Shown here: positions 25,915 to 64,000 of the stretch, one piece after another | Layout: each line of letters starts with the position of its first letter | Position numbering within the stretch: position 1 is the stretch's first letter | Source: Patescibacteria group bacterium | GTDB lineage: Bacteria > Patescibacteriota > UBA1384 > 2-12-FULL-50-11 | Length of the DNA stretch: 64,000 bases | NCBI GenBank assembly: GCA_016861245.1 | Contig: BOKZ01000001.1 | Span: forward strand, 13,107 to 77,106 | Reading direction: 5' to 3' | Program-made: the position numbers and the translations under genes | Notes under the pieces: model-generated | Seen by the model: the letters and a program-made list of their open reading frames with translations, nothing else | Databases searched by the model: none | What the model was told of the DNA's origin: nothing

Positions 25915-25928
25915 TTAAACTCTTTATC

Positions 25929-26045
25929 TTGGCGTCGGCCTACTTTCCCGAGGGCTGTTAGCCCTGAGTATCATCGGCGCTGGCAGGCTTAACTTCTCTG
26001 TTCGAAATGGGAAGAGGTGTACCCCTGTCGCTCGAGACACCAAGA
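25929..26045 (-). rRNA. rrf: 5S ribosomal RNA
   Basis: The reverse complement reads CTTGGTGTC...CACCTCTTCCCATTTCGAACAGAGAAGTTAAGCCTGCCAGCGCCGATGATACTCAGGG...GACGCCAAG, which matches the 5S consensus helices. Confidence 0.75.
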
Positions 26046-26130: not shown

Positions 26131-26373
26131 CTAGTAGCGCTGAGGGGTGATCGAACCCTCGGCAATACATTTCTCCGATGAGAACAGTCGCTTACAGCGA
26201 TAGACCTTGTACTGACCATCGGTGAGTGAGTGTGCAGAGATTAATGCGTCAACATGACCGCCGGCGAGTTTGATCGCATCGGCATCGTTTTTCGCGTCGA
26301 ATTCCGGGCTGTTCACCCGCTTGGATTTGTGTTGGTTGTCTGATGCTGAGCATTTCACGATATACTTCGCCAT
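26131..26373 (-). CDS. Hypothetical 80-aa protein encoded in the 23S-5S spacer
   Basis: ATG preceded by GGAGGTGAGCA. Same strand as the rRNAs. No recognisable family. Confidence 0.45.
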   Translation of the reverse strand: MAKYIVKCSASDNQHKSKRVNSPEFDAKNDADAIKLAGGHVDALISAHSLTDGQYKVYRCKRLFSSEKCIAEGSITPQRY

Positions 26374-26489
26374 TGCTCACCTCCATCCGAGAACGTTATA
26401 TTGTTGTGGTTTCCAAACCAAAGTCGAAGACAATTCAGGCGACGTTCCTTCTTTCCTGCGTAGAAATTACGCGCAGAAAAGAAGTAGTA

Positions 26490-29775
<3,286 letters not shown>

Positions 29776-30038
29776 TTGCTTCAAATATGATTAAGGAACC
29801 ATATTTGAAGTTGTGCTGTCGTCGAATTGTCTTCGACTTCAGCTTGGAAACCTAGTTGTTAAGCATTCATCAGAGGTAAGAAAAAACCGCTTTGGCGAGC
29901 GGCTTCTAAGGTGACCCCAAAATAGTGGTCTCTTATAAACCGACGCCTCCTTGTGTTTTTCCTAACATGTACCTGGTGATTGTCCCATATTTGCGCATAT
30001 TGCGTCAAGACTCTGCCTGAGCGCTTGAAGAGCAATAA

Positions 30039-30476
30039 TTATGATGCGCCAGTTGAGCCGAAACCGCCGCGAGATTCGGGTGCGAGCTCGTCTTTTGAGA
30101 CTTCTTTCCAGACCACTCGCGGTACCTCTACAAAGAATCCTTGCGCTATTCTTTGTCCTTGTTCAATTTCAATCGGTTTCTCGGTTCGGTTTTGAACTTG
30201 AATTAAGATCTCGTCCTCGGGTCCGCAATAGGTTGGGTCGATAATCCCAAACGAGTGCGGCATGCTAATGCCGTATTTTGGAGCGCTCGAACGCGGGGCG
30301 ATCCCTAACATATAACCTGGCGGGACATGAACAATTAATCCAGAGGGAATTTTTGCTACTTCGTTTGGCTGAATGGTCGTCGCAACCGCTGCCTGTAAGT
30401 CAAAACAAGCTGCTGATTCGGGCACATATTTTGGCATATCTATACCATCACGGATTCGGGCAATTTTTATTTCCAT
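30039..30476 (-). CDS. dut: dUTP diphosphatase
   Basis: Motifs GIIDPTYCGPE and RGGFGSTG. Start taken at the internal Met MEIKIARI. The track ORF extends to 30560 with an implausible 28-aa extension. Confidence 0.75.
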   Translation of the reverse strand: MEIKIARIRDGIDMPKYVPESAACFDLQAAVATTIQPNEVAKIPSGLIVHVPPGYMLGIAPRSSAPKYGISMPHSFGIIDPTYCGPEDEILIQVQNRTEKPIEIEQGQRIAQGFFVEVPRVVWKEVSKDELAPESRGGFGSTGAS

Positions 30477-42935: not shown

Positions 42936-44351
42936 ATGCATCGGTTATTCCAACCAATTTCGAACGAGCTTCATAGCCATAAGTGGCGTGGCATATCGCT
43001 GATCGTAACGTTTTTAATAATTATCGCTTCACTGCAAGCTCAGAGCGTGCTGCAGAAACAGCAAAGCGATCGCCTCGATCAGCAGTTGGCTGTTGAGCTG
43101 GAGCATAACTCACAATTACAATTAGTCGCCGCAATCAAGACACTTCAGGAAAAAGTTGACGCTGCTAAGGCAATCGGAGCTGACACCACGGCGCTTGAGA
43201 AAGTAATTGTTGAAATTAAATCACGGATTTCTGATCCGACTAAAACGATTGAAAATTTTAACACTATTCGCGATCAAGTCGCCGTGGTTGAGACGCTCAT
43301 TACTACGCAAACGGAGATAAATCGAGTCGCTGAGTTACAGCGCCAATCGGGAATTCTTATTGGAGTGGTAAAAGAAGGCGAACAACTCCTCTCAGGAGTG
43401 TCACTAACACTTACAGATGGCACAGCAACGACTAGCACAACAAGCGCCGCCGACGGCGCTTATACTTTTACGATTACGGCCGGGACATACACACTCACAG
43501 CATCAAAGAGCGGTTACAATTCGGTTAAAAAAACCGGCGTTAGTATTACAGCTCAGCAAACAACAACGCTTAATTTGGCACTTACAAAGACGCAAGCAAA
43601 AACCAGTACGACCACCACGACCTCCACCACTAACGGCGACAGTAAGTATGAGAAAATATCGATCGCAACCAGTCGCGGTAGCTTCAGTATCCATCTCTCA
43701 ACCTTTAACTTAGCTAGCGGTCAGTTTGCTGTTAGCACCGATACCGCTAACGACAACGATTGCACCGATAACTGCCCGACCAAAAGCTTAAGTAGTTACG
43801 TCAGTGGTAACGGCGGCTTTGCCGGCATGAACGGTACCTATTTTTGCCCCGCCGATTACTCAGCGTGCGCCGGCCAAGTCGGCTCGTTCTTCTGGAAAGT
43901 GCTCAATACTCGTCTCAGTAAAATGATTAACGCTAACAACGGCTTAGGCGAAAACGACCCGTTTATCGCTTTTAACTCCGCCGGTACCGCTAGATATTTT
44001 TCATCCTGGAGCAGCTACGCCGGTTCGGGGTTTGCTGGAGTCGCCGGTATCAACTGTAAACCAGCGTTAATTAGTAACGGCAACAACATTCTCGACGAAG
44101 GCTCGCTTGACGATAAACAACGCACAACCAAATCGAATCGCGGCGCGATCGGGCTAAGGGGGCAAACCCTTTATTTAGTTATCGCTACTAGCGCTACTGT
44201 CCCTGATTTAGCGGCGGTTATGGACGCACTCGACGTCGATTACGCGCTCAACGTCGACGGTGGCGGATCGAGTGCGATGATGTTTAATAGTAGTTACAAA
44301 ATTGGCCCGGGCCGGAGCTTGCCTAACGCCATTATTATTAAACGCCGCTAA
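42936..44351 (+). CDS. Secreted/membrane-anchored protein with carboxypeptidase-regulatory-like domain and phosphodiester glycosidase (DUF2233)-like C-terminal domain
   Basis: N-terminal TM helix. SGVSLTLTDG..GAYTFTITAGTYTLTASKSGY CarbopepD_reg-like fold. Thr-rich linker. NVDGGGSSAMMF resembles the DUF2233 DGGGS motif. Confidence 0.45.
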   Translation: MHRLFQPISNELHSHKWRGISLIVTFLIIIASLQAQSVLQKQQSDRLDQQLAVELEHNSQLQLVAAIKTLQEKVDAAKAIGADTTALEKVIVEIKSRISDPTKTIENFNTIRDQVAVVETLITTQTEINRVAELQRQSGILIGVVKEGEQLLSGVSLTLTDGTATTSTTSAADGAYTFTITAGTYTLTASKSGYNSVKKTGVSITAQQTTTLNLALTKTQAKTSTTTTTSTTNGDSKYEKISIATSRGSFSIHLSTFNLASGQFAVSTDTANDNDCTDNCPTKSLSSYVSGNGGFAGMNGTYFCPADYSACAGQVGSFFWKVLNTRLSKMINANNGLGENDPFIAFNSAGTARYFSSWSSYAGSGFAGVAGINCKPALISNGNNILDEGSLDDKQRTTKSNRGAIGLRGQTLYLVIATSATVPDLAAVMDALDVDYALNVDGGGSSAMMFNSSYKIGPGRSLPNAIIIKRR

Positions 44352-45065: not shown

Positions 45066-45139
45066 GGGCGATTAGCTCAGCTGGTTAGAGCGCGTCACTG
45101 ATAATGACGAGGTCACTGGTTCGAGTCCAGTATCGCCCA
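45066..45139 (+). tRNA. tRNA-Ile (anticodon GAT)
   Basis: GGGCGAT/ATCGCCC acceptor, anticodon loop CTGATAA, T-loop GGTTCGAGTCC, discriminator A. Confidence 0.85.
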
Positions 45140-45149
45140 CGAATATGCA

Positions 45150-45270: not shown

Positions 45271-46718
<1,448 letters not shown>

Positions 46719-47161
46719 CATAAAAATTCCTGTAGGGATTTTTATGAGAGTTTGTCTTCGCACTCTTCAGAAGAATTGTGCTCAGATCAAACTCTTACCT
46801 TTTGGTAAGAAATTTGTGTCCGACGGCCGAAACCGTCTTCGTCAAACTCTTTGAGATTTAACTCACATAAAAGCCTACTGAACCTTACGAGCGAAATGAT
46901 AAATCATTTCAGCTGACATACTGTTTTGTTTTTTTGGAATTGTTTGGCACTCTCTCGTTTTACCGAGAAAGGGATGGAAATTTGCCAGTCCATCGGCTGG
47001 TTTGTTCTTGTAACCGCGAAATGTTCGCGATTACGCTCCTTTGTTCCCGTGGTAGGTAAAACAAAGGTCCCGCTTGTTAAAGCAGCAAAGTACGTCTGTA
47101 ATTGTACCTATTAGGTTTCCTTGCGTCAACGGCTGCGCAGCGGGTAGGCTAGAAGAAGATT

Positions 47162-48898
47162 ATGAAACTCTTTGAGAACCCTCGACAAGCGTTCTTACTC
47201 CTTGGATTTCTTGTGCTTTCCGCGGCGTTCTACGTAGCAACATACAGTAATAACGCTGAATTTCAGGCCGAAAATGACTTCACACAATACCAGCCCAAAA
47301 CCGCTCAGAGCTTTGTTGAAAGTATCGGGGTTGTAACCCACTTAACCTATAACGACTACAAATCTAACGCCCACTTTGCCGACGTCTATAATAGTCTAGT
47401 TAAGCCGAAAATTCGCGAGCTCGGCGTTCACCACGTCCGACAAAATCTCGCTCACGGCGGTGCTGGGTTTGTTAGCTATTTACAGAAACTACACGAGCTG
47501 AGTAACCCTCCGAATAATTACCCACCAATTCAGTTCTCGCTTAGCGCCACAATTAATCCTACCGACTCGACCAGCCCGATGAACACCTGTTTTTTGCCGA
47601 AAGTTAAATTGCACCTGGTTCCAGGGGTCGTTCCTTGTGGTAACGAGGTCGGACAACCAGTGAGTGTGTCCGTCAAACTCTCAAATATTGAAAACCCAAA
47701 TGAGCCCGATCACTGCTTCAGTTTCGTCTGTAACTACTCGCCATCACCATCCAACTGGTACAAGTACTCACTACAGCAAAACTCCGATTGGCCAGATGAC
47801 GTGCTCGGTGCGGCTTCAAACGCTAAAAGTAAGCTGCTCTCAGATCCGGCAACTGCCAATATCATCACCGTGGCACCGTCGTTCGTTTGGTTACAGTATC
47901 ACCAAAATGAGACGTACAACGGCACAAACTTACGGACGTACCTCAACCCCATTAACGCTAATATCTCGTACGGGAATTCACACCCCTATTGCGGCCTTAA
48001 CTCTGTTTCAACTTGTTTTGCTAACACCGTTCAACACGCCGTCAATCGCTACGCACCTAAGCCGGTTTTCGTTACCGAAACCGGACATTCAACTCATGAA
48101 TATTCAGAAACTCAGCAGGCAAAGTATCTTCTTCGTATCCTTTTCGATTTTTTTGAGCGCGGAATTCCGCGAACGTACATTTACGCTTTTCTTGACGAGC
48201 CATCGGCAGCAACACTTAAAGAACAGAATTTCGGCCTACTAAACGAAGACGGTCGTGAGAAGCCGGCGTATGTGTGGCTTAAAAACACGATCGCATTACT
48301 AAAAGATAGTGGCAGCGTTGGTTTAAAAGCGTTATCGATGCAAATTAGCGGTAATGGCTTGCGTCACTCCCTGCTTCAAAAAAGCGACGGCAGCCACTGG
48401 CTGGCTCTCCAATACGACAAAAGCAACACAACTGACGCTGACGCCACAACTGCGGCAACTATTACCTTCGCTTCTCCAAAGAACGTTGAGTACTACTCAC
48501 CAGCTAGTACAGCCGCGTACAAAACCGAGAGCAGTATTACGACACTCTCAATCTCTGTACCAGATAAAATCACGCTACTGAGAATTAGCGATCCAGTCGC
48601 ACTAAATAGCGGTTCAAACTCTAGTACAACTTCGAATTCCACTACTAACTCAACAACCAAACAATCTACTACCAAGAATTCCGGCAAGGCGAATGATCAG
48701 CCGAACCAGACCGGTCAGACTGAAACAGAGACGGATAGTACCGGATTCGAGCTGAAAGACAACGAGATCCAGCTGACGAAAAACTTAGCTGTAAGTAAAA
48801 ATCTGTTTGCGACAATCTTAATTGTTGCACTTCTCTTCGTTACGGTTGTTATTAGTTGGCTTCGATTGCGCCGAGAACTGCATCAAAAAAAGCCCTAG
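47162..48898 (+). CDS. Putative cell-surface glycoside hydrolase-like protein with C-terminal Ser/Thr-rich stalk and TM anchor
   Basis: N-terminal signal anchor. FVTETGHST resembles a retaining-GH TExG nucleophile motif in a TIM-barrel-like region. ST-rich low-complexity segment then C-terminal TM helix. Confidence 0.35.
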   Translation: MKLFENPRQAFLLLGFLVLSAAFYVATYSNNAEFQAENDFTQYQPKTAQSFVESIGVVTHLTYNDYKSNAHFADVYNSLVKPKIRELGVHHVRQNLAHGGAGFVSYLQKLHELSNPPNNYPPIQFSLSATINPTDSTSPMNTCFLPKVKLHLVPGVVPCGNEVGQPVSVSVKLSNIENPNEPDHCFSFVCNYSPSPSNWYKYSLQQNSDWPDDVLGAASNAKSKLLSDPATANIITVAPSFVWLQYHQNETYNGTNLRTYLNPINANISYGNSHPYCGLNSVSTCFANTVQHAVNRYAPKPVFVTETGHSTHEYSETQQAKYLLRILFDFFERGIPRTYIYAFLDEPSAATLKEQNFGLLNEDGREKPAYVWLKNTIALLKDSGSVGLKALSMQISGNGLRHSLLQKSDGSHWLALQYDKSNTTDADATTAATITFASPKNVEYYSPASTAAYKTESSITTLSISVPDKITLLRISDPVALNSGSNSSTTSNSTTNSTTKQSTTKNSGKANDQPNQTGQTETETDSTGFELKDNEIQLTKNLAVSKNLFATILIVALLFVTVVISWLRLRRELHQKKP

Positions 48899-49937: not shown

Positions 49938-49960
49938 GCGCCCACCCGGGCGCTTTTTTT
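49938..49960 (+). terminator. Rho-independent terminator
   Basis: GCGCCCACCCGGGCGC hairpin followed by TTTTTTT. Confidence 0.65.
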
Positions 49961-52900
49961 ATTGTAGGACTTCTGGTTTTCGACGTAGTATTAGCCAGAG
50001 TGAGACACTAGTAACCGTAAGAAGCGTTGCGAGAATCCCGATCCGAACCCAAAGATCAACCTTTTTTTGTTCAGCTGCCGTCTCTTCTTTTGTAGTATTC
50101 TTAATAATTAAGTCTGTCACGCTGGAAACGACGCTACCGTTCAGCTTCCAGCTCGGCCCGCCGCCCTGATTCCCGCCTTGGTTGCCCGATCCACCGCCAC
50201 CCGTGTTTTTTTGGAAAGTAAATGTTAGCTGTTTTTCGACAACATTGCCGGCAGCGTCACGAGCTTCAGCTTTGAGATTGTGACTGCCGTTAGTGAGTTT
50301 CAAGTTTTTTGTGTTCATATTTACCGTACAGGTACCGCTTGTGATCGCACTGCTGTATGTGCAACCACCAAATCGAACACCGTCAACATAATAGTCAGCT
50401 CTGGTTACACCGACATTATCAGCGACGGCGCTAATAACCTTAATAGTGTTACCCGAGTAAATCGAACCGGCCACTGGTTGTGAAATCGTAAGCGTCGGGG
50501 CGGTCTGATCGGCCTGGGAATTACCAGAACCAGGATCGTTATTTGTGGCGACAGCGTAGGTGACTGGAGTCGTACAGCTCTCATTACTCCACAACGCCTC
50601 ACTCGCGAGCGACTCAAGATTTAAACTATCCAGCATCGATCTGACGCAGACAATATACTTCGTGTTATTTACCGGAGAGCTAATTCCAATCGTTGGGCTT
50701 AGTGTTTGAGTATCTGTCCAGCCCCCAATTGCTGTTTGCGCCCCAGTGGAACTAACGCTTCGCAGTTGATACTGTAGCGCTGCCTGATAGCTAAAGTAGT
50801 CGGTATTCGTAGTAATCGTTACTGAGAGCTCGGGAGTTATTACAGAATCGGTGCTGGCAAGCACGGTCGGTTGTGTTGCTTTGATCGTACGAACACCTGC
50901 AGCAGATGGGTTAAGTTGGACGATACCGCTTGAGGCGGCCGCCGATGACGAAGAAATTGTGTAACTATTAGGTTCAAAAAGCGGTTCGGTGGCTGAAATC
51001 TGGAGTAAATCAGCGTCGTAGCCGAGCGCTTGCCAAGCTGTTAAATCCAGATCAGAAAAAGCCGATGAGTTCGGATCTGGAGGCTCGTATGTTACTTTAA
51101 ACGTCTGACCGGGCAGGTATTTTATAACATTCTGAGTGAACACTTGGGTGCCACCGCGATGAAACTTATACGCACGCACTGTACCGCCTGTAGTGGTTTT
51201 CGGAGCAATGATGTTTTTTTCAAAGACATTTTTAATCATCGTCTCACCCTCAACTGGATTCTCTTTAAGCTCTACAATGTGCGGATACCGTTGGTTGTAC
51301 AACGCAACGTCGTAGCCCTGAGCAGCCATGTTCTGTACCTGTTGGTACATCTGATCATAAAGCGGAGCGAAAAAGCCTGATGTCGTGATCGGTTCGTCAA
51401 AGAACACCGACTCTCGACAGGTTAAGTAGTTATTGGTGTAGCGATTATACATACCACCGTGGTTAGAGATACAGGTACCTACCGGGTTTTCTATAACGTT
51501 ATTACGCACCTGCAAACCCGAAACCCAATCGTCCGCCATAATTCCCATAAACGGGGAGAATGCCGGCACTGTAGAATTTTTTGTTACCAACTCCCAAATA
51601 CCGTAAGAGCGCTCAAAATACATCTGCGGACTGTGGAGATAGTTCTCCTCGATGATGTGGCCGCTTTGCAAAACGCTCCTTCCACCAAGGTTAATCAAAC
51701 CCGTATCTCGGTGAAGCCAGCCCGAATTGTAGATAGTATTTTTTCGGATGATGTGATCGTTACCGCTTACAATTACGCCATGACCAGCAAAATCCCTAAT
51801 TGTATTTCCCTCAACCAGTATCCCGACCTGCTCTTTATCTAGCCACAAGGTGGTTCGCCCTCGTCCGGCGTACAGGTCGATATTTTCGATTAAATTATTT
51901 TTAATAACATTATTAGTTGGTGCGAGCGTCTTCATAAAATTACCGCCGTTGATCGCGATCGCTGACGACGCCACTGGCGCGTCTAAATCATGTAGATAGT
52001 TGTCGAGAATTTGTAGTTTTGTATTCGGTCGGTATTCGGTAGTAAAGGCGTTACCTCCCCAGCGAACTTCATTACCACGAAATACGACGTTACTAACAGT
52101 AAGATTGACGTGGAAGGCTCGACTTTGAAATTTCTCCATCGTAAAACCTTGCCAGATAAAATTACTTGCCCCGGCCAATACAACTTCATTAACAACGGGA
52201 ATGTAAATTGTATCGGAGGAGTTAAGCGCCGCACCTAAATTAACTTTTAGCTGCTTAGTGGTCTTGTCAAAATGGAACTCTTTTTCAGATAGAAGTTTAC
52301 TCGAACCCTGGATCCAAAAGAGCTCGCCAGCGGCGACGTTGTTTGGTAATGGCGTCGAAAGGCGAATTTCGCGCGAATCTGTATCGATAGATAATACATC
52401 CTTATTTTCCAACCAGCGCCAAAGACCTGCTTTATCATAAATCGATACCTTAAGTCCCGTTTCTCCTGCAAGTTGGTTAATCGCACTAGCGTCTTCGACG
52501 CGATATTTAATAACGTCTTTGACCGCCGCTTGATCGGCTGCTACGTACATAAACCGCCCCGCGTACGGATCGGCTACATTCTTTGTTGGTGGAGTCCAGT
52601 TTGGATAACGGGCAGGTACGAGACGGGTGTTGTTGTGATAAATAAAGTCAAACGTAGCGTTCTCTGCTGGAGTGCCGACTAAACTGGTTTGGTACGTCGT
52701 GCCGGATTCAAGTGTTAAATCTTTCAGCGCCAAGCTTCCAGTGATAATCGGCTTCTCACCAGGGAAGTTGGTAACCATGTTCGGCGCCTCGACGGTACCA
52801 CTGTCCTCGGCTGAAAACGACAACGAATTAGTTAAATTATATTCGCCGCCACGCACCAGGATCTTTGAGCCGGGCAAACCAGCAGCGCGTACCGAATCGC

Positions 52901-53096
52901 GAGCTTTTTCGATAGTTCTAAACGGTGCGTCGATCGTGCCTGTGTTACTATCGCTCCCCGTCGGAGAAACAAAGAATACCGGGCCCACCCCACTTGCGTT
53001 GAATCCACCGCTAAACCAAACAAAAGCCGCAAGGACTGCGCCTATTAAGCCGACGAGCATTGCTTTGTAATAGTGCTTTTTTAAGAGCATGTCCAC
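49959..53096 (-). CDS. Large (1045 aa) cell-surface protein with right-handed parallel beta-helix and Ig-like domains
   Basis: N-terminal TM/signal anchor. PbH1-like repeats (GNTIRDFAGHGVIVSGNDHIIRKNTIYNSGW, NNVIENPVGTCISNHGG). Ig-like Thr/Ser-rich domains. Gly-rich linker then C-terminal TM helix. Confidence 0.5.
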   Translation of the reverse strand: MDMLLKKHYYKAMLVGLIGAVLAAFVWFSGGFNASGVGPVFFVSPTGSDSNTGTIDAPFRTIEKARDSVRAAGLPGSKILVRGGEYNLTNSLSFSAEDSGTVEAPNMVTNFPGEKPIITGSLALKDLTLESGTTYQTSLVGTPAENATFDFIYHNNTRLVPARYPNWTPPTKNVADPYAGRFMYVAADQAAVKDVIKYRVEDASAINQLAGETGLKVSIYDKAGLWRWLENKDVLSIDTDSREIRLSTPLPNNVAAGELFWIQGSSKLLSEKEFHFDKTTKQLKVNLGAALNSSDTIYIPVVNEVVLAGASNFIWQGFTMEKFQSRAFHVNLTVSNVVFRGNEVRWGGNAFTTEYRPNTKLQILDNYLHDLDAPVASSAIAINGGNFMKTLAPTNNVIKNNLIENIDLYAGRGRTTLWLDKEQVGILVEGNTIRDFAGHGVIVSGNDHIIRKNTIYNSGWLHRDTGLINLGGRSVLQSGHIIEENYLHSPQMYFERSYGIWELVTKNSTVPAFSPFMGIMADDWVSGLQVRNNVIENPVGTCISNHGGMYNRYTNNYLTCRESVFFDEPITTSGFFAPLYDQMYQQVQNMAAQGYDVALYNQRYPHIVELKENPVEGETMIKNVFEKNIIAPKTTTGGTVRAYKFHRGGTQVFTQNVIKYLPGQTFKVTYEPPDPNSSAFSDLDLTAWQALGYDADLLQISATEPLFEPNSYTISSSSAAASSGIVQLNPSAAGVRTIKATQPTVLASTDSVITPELSVTITTNTDYFSYQAALQYQLRSVSSTGAQTAIGGWTDTQTLSPTIGISSPVNNTKYIVCVRSMLDSLNLESLASEALWSNESCTTPVTYAVATNNDPGSGNSQADQTAPTLTISQPVAGSIYSGNTIKVISAVADNVGVTRADYYVDGVRFGGCTYSSAITSGTCTVNMNTKNLKLTNGSHNLKAEARDAAGNVVEKQLTFTFQKNTGGGGSGNQGGNQGGGPSWKLNGSVVSSVTDLIIKNTTKEETAAEQKKVDLWVRIGILATLLTVTSVSLWLILRRKPEVLQ

Positions 53097-54337: not shown

Positions 54338-54931
54338 CTACAGCACTTTGTCGACTAAACCGTAGTTCTTAGCTTCTTCTGGGTTCATCCAGAAATCTCG
54401 CTCGGTATCGGCTTGGACTTTGTCGAATCTCTGGCCGGTGTTTTCGGCTAAAATCTCGTTCATAAGTTTCTTGAGCCGAAGAATCTCTTTGGCTTGAATT
54501 TCGATATCGGTTGCTTGCCCCTCAGCGCCGCCCATTAACTGATGAAGCATTACCCGGGCGTTTGGCAGCGCGAAGCGCTTGCCTTTCTCGCCTCCGGCCA
54601 AAAGAAATGCGCCCATCGACGCCGCCATACCGATACAAATCGTCGAGACATTCGGCTTGATGTGCTTCATGGTGTCGTATATTGCGAGACCGGCAGAGAC
54701 AGAGCCGCCGGGACTATTGATATACATCTGGATATCTTTTGCTGAGTTTTCGGATTCCAAGAATAGTAGTTGCGCCATAATTAAGTTAGCAACGTTGTCG
54801 TCGATCGGACCGCCTAAGAAAATAATACGATCACGCAGTAATCGTGAGTAAATATCAAAAGCTCGCTCGCCGAACTGCGATTTTTCAACCACCATCGGAA
54901 CTAGGTAATTGTTCTGAGGTTCTTTTTGCAT
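54338..54931 (-). CDS. clpP: ATP-dependent Clp protease proteolytic subunit
   Basis: Ser-His-Asp triad context ([17 protein letters not shown]), full-length ClpP homology. Confidence 0.93.
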
Positions 54932-54971: not shown

Positions 54972-56153
54972 CTACTTTGTCTTTTCGATCAACTCACCAA
55001 GATACTCTTGAAAGTCGTCGTTAGTTGAGAGTTCCCTGCCTTGCTCTTTCGCAAGTTGCGACAAGCCCAGCCCAACACGAACGGAAGCTTCCGCGGCTTT
55101 ACGCCAGTCTTTTTCCATCTGTTCCATCGTGATTTTTCGGCGCTTTAACCAATCTTCAGCCGAGAGATGCCGCTCTTCTAGAAACGTCTGCCAAGCGTTT
55201 TTAGAACGTTCGATCTCCGAGTGGAGTAGCGTCTCCGGCACTTCAACCGTAATACATTTATCAAACTCGGCTAGCCATTCGGCGCGACGCGATTGTTCGT
55301 ATTCGGTCAGGCGTTCTGTTTCTAGCTCAGAACGAATCGCTTGCTTTAGTTGCTCAAGCGTATCGTGACCAAACTTTTTACCAAATTCGTCGTCCAATTT
55401 CGGCAATGTGACTTTATAAACTTCGTCGACTTTCAAAGAAAAATCTACAGTCTTACCGGCCAGCTCTTCATCGTAGTGATCTTTGGGAAATGGTACGGAA
55501 AATTTCTTTTCATCACCCTTCTTCACCCCCGGCAGCTCTTTTTCAAATCCGGGCAAAACACTAGCTTCGCCGAGCATCACCGGAAACTTAGCAGCGCTGA
55601 GTTTATCTTTACGTACTCCACCGATCGATCCTTCGAACGTAATATCGACGCGATCGCCTTTTTGCGCTTTCTCTAACGTTACCGCTTGCTGGGCGTGACC
55701 TTTCCCGAGCGATTCAAGAACCTTATCAATGTCGGCATCGGTAACTGGTTCAAGTTTCGCTTTGCCAAGCTTAATCTTTTCCCAGCCTTTCACCGTAATT
55801 TCAGGACGAATATCAAATGAGAACTGGAGGGTAGAAGGCTTATCTTCCTCAAAGTCGATAATCTCAACTTCTGGATCTTGGATCGGCACAACTTTTAATT
55901 CCTTAACAATCGCATGCCAAGCGTCGTGAACCGCAAGCGAATACGCCTCTTCGCGTAGAGCAGCGGCGTCGATTTGTTTTCGAATAAGCTCCGCTGGAGC
56001 CTTTCCTGGTCTGAAACCTGAAATTTTTACGTTTTTAGATAGCCGCTGCAAGGCATCAGTAAAGAAATCGCCGGTTTCGACCCCGGTTAGTTTAACCTGA
56101 TACTGAATACGAGTTTTTGAGAGAGTTTTGTGAGTTATTTCCATTACAACCAA
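54972..56153 (-). CDS. tig: Trigger factor
   Basis: N-terminal ribosome-binding GFRPGKAP motif, FKBP-like middle domain, tig-clpP gene order. Start may be the Met of MEITHK at 56144. Confidence 0.82.
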   Translation of the reverse strand: MVVMEITHKTLSKTRIQYQVKLTGVETGDFFTDALQRLSKNVKISGFRPGKAPAELIRKQIDAAALREEAYSLAVHDAWHAIVKELKVVPIQDPEVEIIDFEEDKPSTLQFSFDIRPEITVKGWEKIKLGKAKLEPVTDADIDKVLESLGKGHAQQAVTLEKAQKGDRVDITFEGSIGGVRKDKLSAAKFPVMLGEASVLPGFEKELPGVKKGDEKKFSVPFPKDHYDEELAGKTVDFSLKVDEVYKVTLPKLDDEFGKKFGHDTLEQLKQAIRSELETERLTEYEQSRRAEWLAEFDKCITVEVPETLLHSEIERSKNAWQTFLEERHLSAEDWLKRRKITMEQMEKDWRKAAEASVRVGLGLSQLAKEQGRELSTNDDFQEYLGELIEKTK

Positions 56154-56230
56154 GTATAACGATTTAACAGAGAAAAAGGAACCCTCTGAAGAGTTGATTT
56201 CCTTCTGTTATTTTGGCATTTTAAATATAC

Positions 56231-59200
56231 ATGGAGGGGAAAACTTTTCATCGCCTTGATGGAGTCTATCGATTGGTAGCGGATCCTGTTATCCGCCAAC
56301 GGGTTGGACGTGCCGGATTATTTACGACGGTACTACTGGTAGTTTTTGGGCTGGTTACTTCGGCTGCACTGCCACAATTTACGCTTGGTGAAACCGGCTC
56401 CGCTTCGGCCAACCGCTTATGGTCCAGCGGCGCCGAGCTTAATACAACAACAGCTAATGTGGAAATAACAAGCACTTCCGGTACAGTGTCGATTAATAGT
56501 TCAACCAAGCGTTCGGGTGACTATTCGTTTCGTGCTAATCCGACATCAAGTACCGGTATTTTTACAAAGATATTTGCTAACTCAAACCAGTCGAATAAAT
56601 TTTGGTTTCGAACGTACGTCCGTATCGCTGATGACCCAAGCGCCGATACATATATCGTTCGTATTGGTAATAGCGGCGGCGGCAAGATAAGCGTTCGGCT
56701 AACAACTACGAGTACGCTCCAGCTACGCAACGAGGAAGATAATACCAATATTGGCTCCGCTTCTTCTGCTCTTTCGGTTAATACTTGGTACCGTGTTGAA
56801 GTTTACGTTGACACAACGACACTTTCTTCGACCGATGCCGAACTACGGCTCGACGGTACGTCTATCTCCTCTTCAACAGCAGAAAACCTAGCTTCCGGTA
56901 TTGATCGTCTAACTTGGGGCTCAACTGCAACCGGCACAACAGATCTGTACTTTGACGATATCGCGATCAACGACTCGACCGGGCGGGCCGTAGATAACTG
57001 GCCGGGTGAAGGTCGTATTGTCCATATGCACCCGAACGCTGACGGCAGCAACACCGCCTGGATCGGCGATCCGAGCGATACCAACGATTACGACGATGTT
57101 GACGAAGTTACGCCTAACGACGATACAGATTTTATTCGCTCTCAAACCAACAACCAACTCGACGACAATAATCTAGAAGCTGCAACGAGTGCCGGTATCG
57201 GCGCTAACGACGCCATTAAGCTTGTCTCAGTGGGAGTTCGTATTCGTCCGTGTGGAAACGCCTCAGGCGGTGGACCTGCCTGCCCTCCAGCAGAAATTGA
57301 TATTAACTGGGAGGCACGTATTACTGGTGGGGGTAACACCGAACAAAGCGGTTCGATCGCTATCTCCGATGCGAGCGGCTGGATAACAAACGACGATGAT
57401 TCGGCAAAATTGAACAAAATCACACTTTACGATCTGCCTGGTGCTAGTACAGCGCCGTGGACAGTTGCAGAACTCGATTCAGCTCAAATCGGTGTTGCTA
57501 ACCGTGATTCCAGCGGTACCGGTTTTCGAGTCAGTACGACGTGGCTACAAGTCGAATACGTCGACCGCAGCGGCGGGAGGCTTATTTCAAGCGGATTTGA
57601 GCTGAACTCGGCAACAGCCGGAATGGAAGTTTCGGCAGTTACCAACACTCCAGCTATTAACAGCACCACATTCAGAAGCGGCGCCTACGCACTTCAAACT
57701 GAAAACGGCGGCGGTCAAGAATACGCTCGCTTTTACTTTGAATCAGCCAACACCAACGGCGACTATTACTTACGAGCGTATCTAAACATCGCCACTTCCT
57801 TTAACAACTCAACCGCAACAGTTCTGTCGCTGCTTGATACTAGTAACTTACGGCGAGCCTACCTGAAGCTTACGACCACAAATACGCTCGAATTATGGGA
57901 CGAAGACGGCCAGATCGGCTCCGCTTCATCGGCGCTCAGCACTAGTACTTGGTACCGGATCGAGCTTCGTCTTAACACCGTCCCTAGTGGTGGCTCGCAT
58001 GTTGTTGATGGGCGTATCGACGGCGTATCGTTTGCTAGTAGTAGTACTCGAAACGTCGGTACCGGTGTAGCCAGGATCGGTCTTGGCGTAAACGCTAGCG
58101 ACAATATGGAAGCAAGCGCCAATACCCAAGGCAGTTTAATTTGGGACGATATTGCCTTAAATAAAGGTATCGGCGCCACACAAAACACCTGGCCAGGCGC
58201 GGGTTCGATTATCCATTTACGACCAGACGCCGTCGGTGTTTCGACTAGTTGGACACAAAACGGGTCGTGTGCGGTGAGTAACTTCGGTTGTGTATTAGAA
58301 GTGACCCCGAATGACGGAACAAACTATGTTTCCGAGACTACTTCTGATGATGTTGACGATTATAATATCGACAACTCACCCCTATCTGGTTCGGATGTAG
58401 TCAACCTAGTTTCAGTTGGGGTACGATTCCGAACCAGTTCGGCCACCCAGGAGGATTTCAGAGTTCGCCTAAGAGAAGCTTCGACTGGTATAGCTATCGA
58501 AAGTAATACTCTCTCGCCAGCCTCTACAACTTGGACGACTAATGCCACTGCCGATCCAAAACTCTACCCACTCACGGCATATACTCGACCAGAACTCCCA
58601 ACTATTTGGACTGATACCCAGCTCGACACTGCACAGATAGGTATTCGCGATGTATTAAGCAGCTCCGGAACTGTACAGGTAACAGCAATGTGGCTACTCG
58701 TTGATTACAGCCCCCCAGCAACGATCGTTATTTCTGGCACCTGCGACCAGTATAACCGCACAACCGATTGTACCGACGACGGCTCGAATCAAATACGAGT
58801 AGCTGTTAACGGATCGCTACAAGCGCAAGTTGATACCACTGTTGACGGTGCCTGGGCGATCTCCGGCGTAACCCAACCATCAAGCGGCGATATTATTACC
58901 GTCTTTATTGACGGCAACGCCGATACGAATGAAGCGGTGGCCGTAACTAAATACGACGGTACGGGAGATATCAGCGGGATTGTTCTTTACCAACGACATT
59001 TGACGCTTGGCTCGGACGACAACCCAACGTTAAGTAACGCAGACATCGATGCCTACGATAACTCGGTGTCGGGCGACGAAGATATCTTTTTTGATGTCGA
59101 CGCCAACGACGACTTAACCGTTGATGCAGTAAGTACCTACACAGACGAGTATTTGTATGTGAAATCTGGAACAACGTACCGACCGGGTTCTGGTGGTAGT

Positions 59201-62200
59201 GCCAACGTTAATACTACGCATATCGAGATAGACGGTACGCTGCAGGCTGATAGTAATGCTCTGAACATTAACGGTAATTGGCAAAATGATGGGACGTTCA
59301 CGTCTAACACAAGTACGGTTACTATGAATTCAACTTCGACCGGCCGGACGCTAGCCGGGGCGATGACCGGAAGCTCTGCGTTCTACGACTTAACATTCAA
59401 CGGTTCTGGCGGCGCCTGGAGTTTCTCGGCAGCCGCAGAAACCGATCGAGACTTTATCATTACTGCTGGTAGTGTTACCGCTCCGAGCGGAAATTTAACA
59501 GTTGCTCGCAACTTTACCAATAACGGCACATTTACGCACAACTCCGGCACAGTCGTTCTCGATACAACAACCACCGCCACCATCACGAGCGCGTCCGGCG
59601 GTACAACCTTTAATAACTTCACCTCAACGGCGGCAACTAAAACAATTCAGTTCACGAAGCATACCACCGGCACTCCAGTGTTCACATTTGCCGGCACGTT
59701 CACCATTACCGGAACCAGCGGTAACTTAATCAACGTCTATTCGGATACTAATGGTACGCAGTGGAAAGCTCACTTCAATAGCAACCAGACCAGTGTCACG
59801 TACGCCAATATTCGAGACGGGGGCTGTAACACCGGTACGGCCAACGTGTTTCTCGGCACGGATTCGACCAGCGCCGGTAACAACGATACTTGTTGGGTCT
59901 TCCCGATTAACCGCCTTTGGTCAGGCGGCGCTGAACTGCAATCAGCAACGGCCGGAGTGGAAACTAACTTTAACGACGGGTCGTCACAATCAATTAGTAC
60001 GAGCATCAAGCGATCCGGTGAGGCGTCATGGCGAGTTAATACTACTTCATCGCTCTCGGCGTTTAATAAGTATTTCGTTAATACACCAACTCAAGGTAAA
60101 TATTGGGTGAGAATATATCTTTATATCGCTACTTCTCCGAGCGCTCGCCACAACATTCTTAACCTAAACGGCGCAGCTAGACGTATCGGTGTTCGGTTAA
60201 ATACGAGCAACCAATTAGAACTGTGGAATGAAGAAGATAACTTGCAAATTGGTAGCGCTAGCTCAGCCCTCTCTACCGCAACTTGGTATAGAATCGAGCT
60301 GCACGCCGATACCACAACACTATCCTCCACTTCGGCAGAATTACGGTTAAACGGTTCAACGACTGCAAGCGGAACTGCCAACCTTGCTGCAGCATTTGAC
60401 CGTATCCAGTTTGGTGTGATGGATACGAGTTCAACATCCGACTTATACTTTGATGATATCGCCATAAACGGACCGTCAAGTGCTAGTAATAACTGGCCTG
60501 GCGAAGGCAAGATTGTCCATATGCAGCCGAACGCCGATGGCGATAACGTCGCATGGGCCGATTCGGGTGGTAACTCTATTGACTATGACGAAGTTGACGA
60601 GATACCCCCCGACGACGACTCAACGTACATTCATAGCTCGTCGGCAGGAAACCTAGAAGACCTTAATCTAGAATCTGCGTCGAGTGCTGGAATTGGCGCT
60701 AGCGATACAATTACCGCAGTCAGCGTCGGCTTACGTTTTCAGGCCTGCAATTCAGGAGGACCCGCTTGTCTTGTAGGCGCGGGCGACAACTATAAAGCAC
60801 GGCTTAAGGCGACGGGTGGCGGAACCGTCGAAGAGTCGGCATCGATTAACGCCGATAACGGCGCTGGTTACGCGACAAACCGAAATAGCGCCTCAGCGAA
60901 TGCGAACCTTTACCCACTCACACTCTTAGATCTGCCCGGCTCGAGCGTAACCAAATGGACACCATCTGATCTCGATACCGCCCAGATCGGCATGCGACAC
61001 GACACGTACGAGAACGGATTTCGAACAACAACGATGTGGCTCTTGGTCGAGTATATCCCTGTTACCAATGTTACTGGTACCTGTGATCAGTACGACCGAA
61101 CGACTGACTGCGTCGATGATGGATCGAACCAAATAAAAGTCGCTGTTAACGGAACACTCCAACCCGGCGCAGATACAACCGTCGACGGTTCGTGGTCGGT
61201 TGGTATCACACAGCCAAATACCGGCGACATCATTACGGTTTTCATCGACGGTAACGCCGATAATAACGAAGCGGTAGCCGTTACTAAATACGACGGTACT
61301 GGTGATATTACTGGCGTTCTTCTATACCAACGCCACTTAACGATCGGTTCAGACGATAATCAAACAATTACTAACGCCAACCTTGCTAGCTACGACAACT
61401 CAGTGTCTGGCGATGAAGATATATTCTTTGACGTCGATGGAAATAACGACTTAATAGTAGATGCGGTTGGAACATACACCGACGAGTATTTGTTTATTAA
61501 GACAGGAAACATATATCGCCCTGACTCTTCTAGCAGTGGGAACGTTTCGGTAACGCACCTGGAGATAGACGGAACTATTACAGCCGACGGCAACGCATTC
61601 TCAATTAATGGCAACTGGCAAAACGACGGAACGTTTAGCGCGGGGACCAGCACTACAACTTTCACATCCACGACCACCGGCCGAACAATTGCTGGCACCA
61701 TTAGCGGTACCACCGGCAAATTCTACAACTTAATATTTAACGGCACAGGCGGTGAATGGACAAATTCCGCGGCGCTAGAAGTAGCGAACGATTTAACGAT
61801 GACAGCAGGAACGTTAGCCGGAACTAATAACGTCACTGTCGTCGGCCACACACAAGGTACAAGCGGCGTAATAAACCGAACCGGCGGTACTTTCAAACAA
61901 GGGGCAACAGCATCAAAGAACTTCGGCACAACGAGCGGCACTACCGCTTGGACGTTTAGCGATCTCACCTTCGCAAATGATCTCGGGATCTGTACGGGTA
62001 TCACTTATACCACTCAAACTGGCGGAACCGGCGGTATTACCGTGTCTGGGATTCTACGAGTCGGCGAATCTGGTGACGGCGTTGGTTGTACTACTACACT
62101 TAACGCTGGTGACCGGACCTGGACCCTCTCTGGTATTACCGGTGATCCGTTCCAACTATTAGCTTCACCAGCCGGAAGCCTGACGGCAGCCACTTCTACG

Positions 62201-64000
62201 TTTTCCTACACCGGCAACGATGGGTTAGGTAATACGACTATCCAATCAACTACGTACTACAATCTAACGATTAATAACTCTGCCGAAACCTTTGTGCTCG
62301 AAGGTACAACTAATGTGGGCAATGATTTAATGATCACCAACGGCACTCTTGACACCACTACAAGTAACCACAGTATGAGTATCACCAGAGACGTGTTAAT
62401 CGCTAATACGGCAACCGCCACTTTTCGAGCTCGGGGCTCAACGATCACCGTCTCGCGGCATTGGTCAAAAGGTTCGAGCGGCGTCTTCACTAGAGATAGT
62501 TCAACGGTTCAGTTGAACGGCGATGGTGAAATTCAGACGGTCGGCGGCGGACAGACACAATTTGAGCATTTGGTAGTTGCCTACTCTGGCAAGACCACGA
62601 CGATGGCGACCTCAACAACGCACGTATTTGGTACCCTGACGGTGAACGAGGGAACCCTAACCTGTAGTATTACCTGTACATTCCAGTTGTTTAGAACCTC
62701 TGGAGCAGATCTCTCTATTAACACTTCGGCTACGTTGACTGGTTCGAATGCGACGTTTCACTTACGCAAGCAGAGCGCCTCAACGGTCACGATCGCAGGC
62801 GCGACTAACTACGGTACGTGGAATATTCTGGCAGAGGCGGATACAACTGGGGTTGTAACGTTTAACGTTGGCGGGGCTATCACTACCAGCGGTTACCTAT
62901 GGGTACGAGCTAATACCAGTGGAACGGGCTCGAACTTCAACACCCAAAACTACGCTGTCAGCGCCAAATATTTCCTACTGGGTGACGCTACGGACAACAC
63001 CGCTATCGCGGCTAACTTCGGATCAAGCAACACAACATTCAATAACGGTACCGGAGATGGGTTCTACGTTGCTTCGAACGGCGGAGCGCACACCCTCAAC
63101 TTAAGTACGTCGTCCACAACCGTCACTGGTAATGTTAAATTTGGAAACGGGACCGGGACAATCACAGTAGACGACGGCAGCTCCACTTTCACCTTTGCGC
63201 CATCTTCAGGTACCGCGACGTACTCACCAGATGGGGAGACGCTCTACAATGTCATCGTCAACGGCGGCGCCACCGTTTCGCCAGACGGGGCAGTAATTAT
63301 CGCTAACGACTTAACGATGACCGCTGGCACTCTTTCAGGAACACAAAACATCACTGTTAACGGGACAGTTCAGGGTACGGCTGGGATAATCAATTTAACC
63401 GGGGGAACCTTCGAGCAAAGAGTGCTAACGGGCGGTACAAGCAAAAATTTCGGTACTACGTCTGGATCTAACGCGTGGAGTTTTAACGACCTAATTTTCT
63501 CAAACGGCTGCAGTATCTGTGGGTCAGGTGGCCAAATAACAACACAAACAGGTGGGGATGGAGACATCAATGTATCTGGAATTTTAATGGTTGGTAAATC
63601 AGGCGATGGTGATGATATGATACTTGATGCCGGTAACCGAACCTGGAATCTTACCAACGCAAACCATGCCGATCCGTTCCAATTAGTTGGGCCGGCGCCC
63701 AACTTAGTGCCTGCCACATCAACATTTCGTTACATCGGCGACAACGACACCGGATCTGTTACAGTGCAATCGGAAACGTATTGTAATTTAGTGGTTGGTA
63801 ACGCCACAGCTGGCGAAACGTATGTATTAGAGGGAGCGACTAGCACAACTGCGGAGGCATCTTGTGGAGACTTAACAATCAATACAGCTGCGATTGGCTC
63901 AAATACCCTAGATGTCGTTTCCGGCTCTAATTACGCCTTAAACATCGGTGGATCATACACTAATAACGGTAATTTTAACTCACAAAACGGAACAGTTACG
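56231..64000 (+). CDS. Giant repeat-rich cell-surface protein with multiple LamG/ConA-like lectin modules (3' end beyond window; >2590 aa)
   Basis: Manual translation from the ATG at 56231 gives an uninterrupted frame to the window edge (2590 codons, no stop). This is why it is missing from the ORF track. N-terminal signal anchor (GLFTTVLLVVFGLVTSAAL). Recurrent TWYR(I/V)E(L/V)…DLYFDDIAIN laminin-G-like blocks. GT-rich beta-solenoid-like repeats. Internal diverged duplications. Confidence 0.7.
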   Translation, partial: MEGKTFHRLDGVYRLVADPVIRQRVGRAGLFTTVLLVVFGLVTSAALPQFTLGETGSASANRLWSSGAELNTTTANVEITSTSGTVSINSSTKRSGDYSFRANPTSSTGIFTKIFANSNQSNKFWFRTYVRIADDPSADTYIVRIGNSGGGKISVRLTTTSTLQLRNEEDNTNIGSASSALSVNTWYRVEVYVDTTTLSSTDAELRLDGTSISSSTAENLASGIDRLTWGSTATGTTDLYFDDIAINDSTGRAVDNWPGEGRIVHMHPNADGSNTAWIGDPSDTNDYDDVDEVTPNDDTDFIRSQTNNQLDDNNLEAATSAGIGANDAIKLVSVGVRIRPCGNASGGGPACPPAEIDINWEARITGGGNTEQSGSIAISDASGWITNDDDSAKLNKITLYDLPGASTAPWTVAELDSAQIGVANRDSSGTGFRVSTTWLQVEYVDRSGGRLISSGFELNSATAGMEVSAVTNTPAINSTTFRSGAYALQTENGGGQEYARFYFESANTNGDYYLRAYLNIATSFNNSTATVLSLLDTSNLRRAYLKLTTTNTLELWDEDGQIGSASSALSTSTWYRIELRLNTVPSGGSHVVDGRIDGVSFASSSTRNVGTGVARIGLGVNASDNMEASANTQGSLIWDDIALNKGIGATQNTWPGAGSIIHLRPDAVGVSTSWTQNGSCAVSNFGCVLEVTPNDGTNYVSETTSDDVDDYNIDNSPLSGSDVVNLVSVGVRFRTSSATQEDFRVRLREASTGIAIESNTLSPASTTWTTNATADPKLYPLTAYTRPELPTIWTDTQLDTAQIGIRDVLSSSGTVQVTAMWLLVDYSPPATIVISGTCDQYNRTTDCTDDGSNQIRVAVNGSLQAQVDTTVDGAWAISGVTQPSSGDIITVFIDGNADTNEAVAVTKYDGTGDISGIVLYQRHLTLGSDDNPTLSNADIDAYDNSVSGDEDIFFDVDANDDLTVDAVSTYTDEYLYVKSGTTYRPGSGGSANVNTTHIEIDGTLQADSNALNINGNWQNDGTFTSNTSTVTMNSTSTGRTLAGAMTGSSAFYDLTFNGSGGAWSFSAAAETDRDFIITAGSVTAPSGNLTVARNFTNNGTFTHNSGTVVLDTTTTATITSASGGTTFNNFTSTAATKTIQFTKHTTGTPVFTFAGTFTITGTSGNLINVYSDTNGTQWKAHFNSNQTSVTYANIRDGGCNTGTANVFLGTDSTSAGNNDTCWVFPINRLWSGGAELQSATAGVETNFNDGSSQSISTSIKRSGEASWRVNTTSSLSAFNKYFVNTPTQGKYWVRIYLYIATSPSARHNILNLNGAARRIGVRLNTSNQLELWNEEDNLQIGSASSALSTATWYRIELHADTTTLSSTSAELRLNGSTTASGTANLAAAFDRIQFGVMDTSSTSDLYFDDIAINGPSSASNNWPGEGKIVHMQPNADGDNVAWADSGGNSIDYDEVDEIPPDDDSTYIHSSSAGNLEDLNLESASSAGIGASDTITAVSVGLRFQACNSGGPACLVGAGDNYKARLKATGGGTVEESASINADNGAGYATNRNSASANANLYPLTLLDLPGSSVTKWTPSDLDTAQIGMRHDTYENGFRTTTMWLLVEYIPVTNVTGTCDQYDRTTDCVDDGSNQIKVAVNGTLQPGADTTVDGSWSVGITQPNTGDIITVFIDGNADNNEAVAVTKYDGTGDITGVLLYQRHLTIGSDDNQTITNANLASYDNSVSGDEDIFFDVDGNNDLIVDAVGTYTDEYLFIKTGNIYRPDSSSSGNVSVTHLEIDGTITADGNAFSINGNWQNDGTFSAGTSTTTFTSTTTGRTIAGTISGTTGKFYNLIFNGTGGEWTNSAALEVANDLTMTAGTLAGTNNVTVVGHTQGTSGVINRTGGTFKQGATASKNFGTTSGTTAWTFSDLTFANDLGICTGITYTTQTGGTGGITVSGILRVGESGDGVGCTTTLNAGDRTWTLSGITGDPFQLLASPAGSLTAATSTFSYTGNDGLGNTTIQSTTYYNLTINNSAETFVLEGTTNVGNDLMITNGTLDTTTSNHSMSITRDVLIANTATATFRARGSTITVSRHWSKGSSGVFTRDSSTVQLNGDGEIQTVGGGQTQFEHLVVAYSGKTTTMATSTTHVFGTLTVNEGTLTCSITCTFQLFRTSGADLSINTSATLTGSNATFHLRKQSASTVTIAGATNYGTWNILAEADTTGVVTFNVGGAITTSGYLWVRANTSGTGSNFNTQNYAVSAKYFLLGDATDNTAIAANFGSSNTTFNNGTGDGFYVASNGGAHTLNLSTSSTTVTGNVKFGNGTGTITVDDGSSTFTFAPSSGTATYSPDGETLYNVIVNGGATVSPDGAVIIANDLTMTAGTLSGTQNITVNGTVQGTAGIINLTGGTFEQRVLTGGTSKNFGTTSGSNAWSFNDLIFSNGCSICGSGGQITTQTGGDGDINVSGILMVGKSGDGDDMILDAGNRTWNLTNANHADPFQLVGPAPNLVPATSTFRYIGDNDTGSVTVQSETYCNLVVGNATAGETYVLEGATSTTAEASCGDLTINTAAIGSNTLDVVSGSNYALNIGGSYTNNGNFNSQNGTVT

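Follow-up and report, generated by a model that had tools for sequence, protein, structure and literature searches.

A giant, probably exported protein of a Patescibacteria bacterium carries modules shared with phage virion proteins and may belong, as large subunit, to a Csc/WxL-like surface complex

Csc/WxL gene clusters of Firmicutes encode a membrane-anchored WxLIP/CscA protein, small WxL proteins and a large protein with a C-terminal WxL domain of 130–140 amino acids (aa), and the large WxL proteins carry N-terminal adhesive domains, often concanavalin A (ConA)-like (PMC1534035, PMC10599100, PMC9772566). WxLIP is the membrane-anchored, peptidoglycan-binding partner of Firmicute WxL proteins, and WxL systems have been described almost only from Lactobacillales and Bacillales (PMC10599100). 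In Candidate Phyla Radiation (CPR) bacteria, the means of host attachment described besides type IV pili are a small number of adhesins that bear glycan-binding domains and have been implicated in a single Saccharibacterium (PMC10633639, PMC12206443). Here we describe a giant gene at the end of a 64,000-nucleotide stretch of the genome of a Patescibacteria group bacterium (assembly GCA_016861245.1, contig BOKZ01000001.1, positions 13,107 to 77,106 of the forward strand; hereafter the window). The window holds the 5′ two-thirds of this real gene, which encodes a predicted exported cell-surface protein of 3820 aa of the Patescibacteria (CPR) bacterium. We propose, with a probability of roughly 60% for the whole chain of steps, that the giant protein serves as large subunit in a surface complex resembling Csc/WxL, which would present phage-type lectin modules to another cell.

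An initial annotation, made from the sequence alone, had reported one uninterrupted plus-strand frame from the ATG at 56231 to the last base of the window, and translation bore this out, giving 2590 codons with no in-frame stop up to position 64000. This ATG is the earliest possible start (the stop-to-stop frame begins at 56225), and with a stop probability of 0.047 per codon at the base composition of the window (about one stop in 21 codons) the chance of 2590 stop-free codons is ~1e-54. The frame is absent from the list of open reading frames (ORFs) of the window because ORFs running off the sequence end go unlisted. The expectation that the product would run past the window was also correct: an NCBI protein of 3820 aa (P0001), encoded on a 685-kb contig, is 100% identical to the window product, so that the window covers 68% of a 3820-codon gene (its 5′ 2590 codons), with the rest beyond the window end. 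The gene had been called unannotated, which is true insofar as the protein carries no name in the databases, but the protein itself had already been predicted by NCBI.

The modules of the protein were delimited by self-BLAST and by iterative jackhmmer searches among 69 homologues. A look for homologues in related genomes had been proposed in the initial annotation as a check, and orthologues are present in three related loci (L003, L018 and L019). The ground plan of the family comprises a leader, two successive A modules, a B domain, repeats and a C-terminal domain termed Cterm2. Modules A3 and B2 constitute an internal duplication, and within the homologue set a third A copy is present only in P0001–P0006 and P0012, which are the nearest relatives. 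Modules of the A, B and Cterm types were not found in any other ORF of the window. Coordinates are collected in Table 1.

The initial annotation had further described at least three ConA- or laminin G (LamG)-like modules. Three paralogous modules with the quoted motifs and a ConA-like fold are indeed present, but their scores against the LamG family stay below threshold. A search of the translation for LamG, PbH1 and Big families had been named as the check on this claim; the Pfam and NCBIfam scan of the whole translated fragment returned nothing, which taken at face value goes against the claim, and a PDB sequence search with the fragment returned nothing as well. When the first sub-domain of the A modules (Aa) was scanned alone against Pfam, only sub-threshold matches were obtained, all within the ConA-like clan, and none for A3. 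The scores were 22–25 bits for the Cip1-like family (A1 22.1, A2 24.6), 18–19 bits for Laminin_G_3 (A1) and 18 bits for Polysacc_lyase. The Laminin_G_3 (PF13385) gathering score of 27.6 bits was thus missed by A1, while A2 and A3 gave no match to this family, and across 29 diverse A modules only two matched it, all below threshold. Genuine Laminin_G_3 domains of some homologues lie elsewhere in those proteins, outside the A modules, and what the A modules have in common with Laminin_G_3 jellyroll domains is the ConA-like fold at the superfamily level. The gathering score of the Cip1-like family (PF21340, 27 bits) was not reached by A1 or A2; this family matched six of the 29 modules (best E 7e-6), and the A-family profile matched the sequence of Cip1 (3zyp) with an E value of 6e-5. 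Aa shows the two-sheet jelly roll of ConA-like domains; it is nearest to Cip1 and PL20 and is probably of the Ca2+-‘grip’ type. Both Cip1 and the PL20 glucuronan lyase (2zzj) are without the beta-sandwich that forms the second sub-domain (Ab) of the A module, and Ab has no recognisable relative by sequence.

The residues that are invariant among A modules are E10, an ‘RSG’ loop (G37) and D183/D184. By position they match the Ca2+-grip ligands of Cip1 (Glu7, the Ser37 loop and Asp206), the hidden Markov model (HMM) alignment spanning the loop only. In the aligned stretch the cleft residues of Cip1 are poorly retained: His83, Thr85, His98 and Gln104 are not conserved, and only the equivalent of Arg100 is mostly kept. 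Because the invariant residues match the structural Ca2+ grip by position, the cleft residues vary and no convincing activity has been shown for Cip1 itself (PMC3764139), Aa is probably a lectin-like binding domain rather than an enzyme. These observations also bear on a different view of the protein, namely that its ConA-like domains are polysaccharide lyases or glycanases and that the whole is a giant wall- or capsule-degrading weapon for feeding or predation, and not primarily an adhesin. The nearest families include a lyase, PL20. The invariant positions, however, correspond to the Ca2+ grip and not to the cleft, and no glycoside hydrolase or lyase family scored above threshold; we consider such an enzyme improbable.

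A profile search with the whole module against 1.84 billion proteins returned 20,336 representative clusters, of which 2,117 had E values below 1e-30. Among the top 126 representatives (excluding giant-protein homologues already found), 42 were stand-alone proteins of at most 460 aa, most of them starting with ‘MARL...’ and with the module at residue 2; a hydrophobic N-terminus was seen in four of the 42. A1 and A2 matched the HMM of PHROG 14065 with E values of 1.2e-63 and 1.1e-57, respectively, over profile positions 2–381, which cover both sub-domains. In a BLASTP comparison A1 aligned to residues 3–384 of gp11 of Streptomyces phage Galactica with 34% identity over 384 aa (E 7e-59), and relatives of the A module were present in 17 IMG/VR contigs at 28–44% identity. 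Whole phage proteins of 316–365 aa from BFVD superpose on Aa plus Ab with TM-scores of 0.6–0.8, reaching 0.78/0.83. Over its full length the 380-aa two-domain module is thus homologous to virion proteins of a family widespread among phages, and the whole of it is shared with PHROG 14065/Galactica gp11, Hiyaa gp13 and the 320–365-aa proteins of the PHROG 2448 type.

The Galactica gp11 gene (L001 8522–11833), although annotated ‘minor tail protein’, lies between the genes for the major capsid protein and the head-to-tail adaptor. On a 44.7-kb contig with clear phage content (L002) the homologue gene (10001–11173) is directly upstream of an SU10-type adaptor gene, and a gene of ~160 aa immediately upstream of the phage homologue recurs in four IMG/VR contigs. 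This gene position suggests that the phage homologue is associated with the head or neck of the virion and not with its tail. The phage versions that were examined lack a leader, have the module from residue 2 onwards and belong to virion gene modules, whereas in the giant protein the module is triplicated within a secreted cellular protein. The giant protein is not a leaderless virion protein: its gene is chromosomal, placed between tig–clpP and a surface-protein cluster, and its product has a hydrophobic leader.

Homology of the A module to virion proteins would nevertheless also be expected if the gene were of the phage tail-fibre kind and belonged to a prophage, integrated or degraded, instead of encoding a cellular surface protein. 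A prophage origin of the locus was rejected on gene context, the flanks being tig, clpP, NUDIX and rRNA genes in a synteny conserved across genomes, with no phage genes nearby. The presence of a secretion leader, unlike in the leaderless phage versions, and the conservation of the architecture at loci of Patescibacteria metagenome-assembled genomes (MAGs; 14 of 15 GTDB loci) point the same way, and we give the idea of a prophage remnant almost no credence.

A modules were also seen in several other kinds of protein. In a metagenomic protein of 797 aa (P0093) a stand-alone A module is followed by ~35 tandem copies of the 11-residue unit ‘TSDTRNARTKG’. In another group of homologues (P0048, P0050, P0051, P0056, P0057, P0063 and P0064) A modules stand behind MerR/helix-turn-helix (HTH)-type N-termini, in proteins with glycosyltransferase and transposase-HTH Pfam matches, and at residue 15 of proteins named ‘ankyrin repeat protein’. 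The module is therefore used outside the giant-protein architecture.

Beyond the window, the giant protein ends in two further domains, the rare Cterm1 (aa 3480–3690) and Cterm2 (aa 3690–3820, ~135 aa), a conserved immunoglobulin (Ig)/pilin-like domain that occupied the extreme C-terminus in all 45 instances. Used as the sole query, the C-terminal domain matched only unnamed fragments. The genes around the 3′ end were read in relatives. In six loci (L018, L019, L003, L004, L009 and L014) one to three genes for predicted secreted proteins of ~365 aa that end in Cterm2 come after the giant gene, and in L007 small Cterm2 genes are found upstream of it, on the other strand; altogether, small Cterm2 genes adjoin the giant gene in seven loci, including L018, which has ~95% DNA identity to the window. 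The Cterm2 profiles of giant and small proteins matched each other at 99.3% in hhalign. A WxLIP-like protein of ~300–340 aa, with a predicted signal peptide, two Ig-like domains, a transmembrane (TM) helix and a basic tail, is encoded next or nearby in most of the loci that have sufficient flanking sequence, seven in all (L003, L004, L007, L009, L012, L014 and L019), and in a Berkelbacteria genome four genes of the cluster carry consecutive locus tags. Eight of nine WxLIP-like proteins match Pfam WxLIP_PGBD (best E 3.5e-10), and their profile aligns with Firmicute DUF916–DUF3324 proteins over 244 columns (hhalign 98.2%, E 4e-14); the solved WxLIP of E. faecium was not retrieved when the profile was searched against PDB sequences. 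Going by these profile matches, the WxLIP-like protein is a true homologue of WxLIP.

In its predicted composition the cluster found in relatives mirrors that of Firmicute Csc/WxL clusters, with a WxLIP, small proteins and a large protein sharing a C-terminal domain. Like CscC and other large WxL proteins (Siezen 2006, PMC1534035; Hassan & Williamson, PMC9772566, PMC10599100), the giant protein is large, multidomain and probably secreted, has a domain of 130–140 aa at its extreme C-terminus as the only invariant element, and bears N-terminal ConA-like domains of the lectin/glucanase type. Like the clusters of the relatives, Csc clusters contain one to four small secreted proteins with the same C-terminal domain as the large one and an adjacent DUF916–DUF3324–TM gene (WxLIP/CscA), and display of adhesive domains on the wall has been proposed for them. 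In contrast, the giant protein is 4–7 times larger than CscC and the large WxL proteins, and its small partners have ~365 aa with an extra N-terminal domain, as against 190–280 aa in Csc clusters. None of the A, B and Cterm2 modules was present in the four Firmicute large WxL proteins tested.

The identity of Cterm2 is central to this comparison. A terminal motif had first suggested that it was a WxL domain; this was rejected, no homology being detectable with Pfam or hhalign. The WxL profiles used for the latter were built from five plasmid clusters, found with a seed fragment from the Siezen 2006 alignments. What resemblance there is to WxL domains was noted by eye, in the terminal strand and in motif spacing, and is unproven. 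As an aside from the plasmid clusters, in Bacillus anthracis pXO1 an ORF in the position of the large WxL gene (L020 8631–10379), not listed in the plasmid gene table, ends inside the WxL domain and has the first GW-x-L motif only; it is probably a pseudogene.

The Ig/pilin-like Cterm2 could instead be a pilin-like unit assembled by donor-strand exchange, in which case the small proteins would polymerise into a thin fibre with the giant protein as its tip or side adhesin, and there would be no docking on a WxLIP platform. Compared with known donor-strand-exchange subunits (TLP-1 pond fibrils, chaperone-usher pilins and TasA), Cterm2 displays no sequence similarity and no sign of an incomplete fold, and no assembly genes were seen. 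We regard such a fibre as unlikely.

Between the A modules and the C-terminal domains lie the B domains and a long region rich in T, G, S and N (19%, 13%, 10% and 10%, respectively; 52% of residues together). No match was obtained for the B head against PDB sequences. For a beta-solenoid or beta-helix in the T/G/S/N-rich region, there was no Pfam match, no match of the repeat profile (A5) against PDB and only weak autocorrelation, and hhalign of the repeat profile against a neighbouring 1045-aa beta-helix protein gave 0.1%. The beta-solenoid reading given in the initial annotation was not confirmed by these searches, although such a fold is plausible for this region.

The only hydrophobic segment of the giant protein by hydropathy is located at aa 24–53, following a basic n-region, and in the homologue consensus the sequence ‘ETGSASA’ directly before module A1 is conserved. 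A hydrophobic leader can be seen at the N-terminus of each kind of protein in the cluster, giant, small and WxLIP-like. The first 60 residues would form either a Sec signal peptide, as our main reading supposes, or the signal anchor named in the initial annotation. Were the anchor to stay uncleaved, the A modules would lie near the membrane or wall of the producer, where they might bind, for example, its own glycans, and the C-terminal domain would be distal and partner-binding. At 27 aa the n-region is of unusual length, and the putative ‘ASA’ site comes 13 residues after the hydrophobic core, both of which would suit an anchor. On the other hand, in many homologues the A modules lie 300–1500 aa into the protein and not at its N-terminus, ‘ETGSASA’ before the start of the module is conserved, and the C-terminal domain is a strictly positional element that co-occurs with a membrane-anchored WxLIP homologue. 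These points make the reversed orientation a poor bet in our judgement.

With respect to its distribution, the family is confined almost entirely to one phylum: all named homologues, and 14 of the 15 GTDB loci that have the N-terminal architecture, are from Patescibacteria. The sole exception is L017, from an Anaerolineae MAG (DAIDTM010000476.1), for which either genuine spread or a binning error is possible. The GTDB scan recovered relatives of the giant protein of at most 67% identity only. L018, the locus with ~95% DNA identity, has the same upstream gene order as the window, while the orthologues in L019 and L003 are 77% and 67% identical, respectively. When the giant protein was compared with its orthologue in the ~95%-identical genome, identity was 100% over aa 660–2300, 87–89% in A1 and ~60% after aa 2300, Cterm1 was missing and Cterm2 was 38% identical, whereas of the flanking genes tig and clpP were 99% and the 1045-aa surface protein 97–98% identical. 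The giant gene is strongly mosaic between near-identical genomes, a pattern that indicates cassette recombination, as expected of a protein under diversifying pressure. L019 carries a second giant gene after the cluster (26236–30313; 3051 residues called, running off the locus), with a B head and no A module in the part seen, as well as a 494-aa Big_1/CarboxypepD_reg membrane protein after the WxLIP-like gene, which is conserved in L003.

From these elements we infer the following course for the proposed surface complex. The giant protein would be exported by Sec with cleavage of its leader, and Cterm2, together with the small proteins, would dock on the WxLIP-like wall/membrane anchor, as proposed for large WxL/CscC proteins. 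For WxL–WxLIP pairs a DUF916 beta-hairpin has been predicted to insert beside the N-terminal strand (PMC10599100). The repeat region would serve as a long stalk, at the far end of which the phage-type lectin modules would attach to glycans exposed by another cell, which is probably the presumed episymbiont's host, so that adhesion to a host would be the likely role. Intragenic cassette recombination would diversify the tip module and the C-terminal third.

Several observations weigh against this proposal. The cluster is not visible in the window, which ends inside the giant gene; in L018, the closest relative, the three small genes are followed by an unrelated ORF, after which the contig stops, leaving WxLIP unconfirmed for the lineage of the window. 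A credible LPxTG (CscD-like) ORF was not found, whereas CscD is often present in Csc clusters. Cterm2 has neither a Pfam WxL (PF13731) match nor a literal W-x-L motif, and hhalign against WxL profiles gave at most 1.5% (E at least 0.03), compared with 99.8% for the control of small versus large WxL domains. The stalk is presumed from composition and repeats, and the orientation of the molecule would reverse if the leader stayed as an anchor.

Giant modular surface proteins are of a known kind, and so are display clusters of the WxL type. What appears to be new is their combination, in which, within a distant phylum, a WxLIP homologue is accompanied by another putative docking domain at the C-terminus and the displayed modules are also those of phage virion proteins; no paper linking WxL or WxLIP systems with Patescibacteria was found in the literature searched. 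The complex would extend Csc/WxL-type surface organisation to that phylum with another docking domain, and the A modules point to the sharing of modules between phage virions and cellular adhesins. The giant protein becomes a concrete candidate for how CPR episymbionts grip other cells, and an anonymous hypothetical protein is resolved into parts that can be put to the test: a tip module that has many relatives in phages and a confident structure model, a putative C-terminal docking domain, and candidate partners in the small proteins and the WxLIP homologue. More tentatively, and at odds that we place well below even, Patescibacteria might possess a lineage-wide display system in which a WxLIP homologue and a new non-WxL docking domain, borne by small ‘platform’ proteins and giant proteins, display lectin modules for receptor binding that occur in phages too and may have come from them, with cassette recombination setting which hosts can be gripped. 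If that were true, episymbionts would recognise their hosts with phage-type hardware.

Table 1. Position of the giant gene, the modules of its product and the adjoining upstream features in the window
Feature	Position	Strand	Basis or remark
5′ part of the gene for the giant secreted modular protein (P0001)	56231..64000	+	no stop; 100% match to P0001; orthologues L003, L018, L019 with the same tig–clpP synteny
N-terminal region, aa 1–60	56231..56410	+	hydropathy; N-terminus conserved in 24 homologues
Module A1 (aa 60–446): Aa, ConA-like jelly roll (60–262), and Ab, beta-sandwich (263–446)	56408..57568	+	
Module A2 (aa 449–827), A1 paralogue	57575..58711	+	self-BLAST 29–38% to A1; jackhmmer; phrog_14065 E 1.1e-57
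B1 head (aa 826–1010), always precedes T/G/N-rich repeats	58706..59260	+	in 53 homologues, often several copies
B1 tail (aa 1010–1226), T/G/S/N-rich repeat unit with conserved ‘GNN..CW.F’ cap at its end; putative solenoid	59258..59908	+	jackhmmer; alignment A5
Module A3 (aa 1227–1610), third copy of the phage-like module	59909..61060	+	46–55% identical to A1
B2 head (aa 1612–1789)	61064..61597	+	65–68% identical to B1 head
T/G/S/N-rich repeat region (aa 1789–2590 in the window, on to aa 3484), ~180-aa B-tail-like units; presumed stalk	61595..64000	+	repeat matches
Intergenic gap of 77 nucleotides separating tig (−) from the divergent giant gene (+); presumed promoter region	56154..56230	.	sequence
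tig	54972–56153	−	divergent, directly upstream of the giant gene
clpP	54338–54931	−	upstream, beyond tig

The placement of the giant gene divergently from tig–clpP and near another surface-protein gene, as given in the initial annotation, was confirmed. A promoter scan of the 77-nucleotide gap yielded a single weak sigma-70-like match, on the minus strand and not above shuffle expectation. Beyond clpP, the 1045-aa protein (49959–53096, minus strand) carries a hydrophobic segment at its N-terminus and Beta_helix/Pel9A-like and Big_7 domains, and ends in a TM helix with a basic tail; it is 97–98% identical in both L018 and L019, and far more conserved than the giant gene. An ORF of 578 aa without a Pfam match (47162–48898, plus strand) is 76% identical to its counterpart in L018 and 97% to that in L019; with tig and clpP at 98–99% in both loci, it is by this comparison a second gene close to the locus that is mosaic or hypervariable. 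A protein of 471 aa (42936–44351, plus strand), in which a CarboxypepD_reg/PEGA domain occurs together with a phosphodiester glycosidase domain (NAGPA), is likely another envelope- or glycan-related protein.

The rRNA genes of the window are unlinked, with 16S at 45274–46725, 23S at 26484–29743 and 5S at 25927–26044 (all on the minus strand) and ~15.5 kb of protein genes separating 16S from 23S, an arrangement consistent with the assignment to Patescibacteria. Next to 16S, in the opposite orientation, is a tRNA-Ile gene (45066–45140, plus strand). With 3260 nucleotides against a model of 2925, the 23S match contains ~335 nucleotides of extra sequence that may be an insertion or an intron, and an ORF of 187 aa (29292–29855, plus strand) overlaps the 5′ part of the 23S gene.

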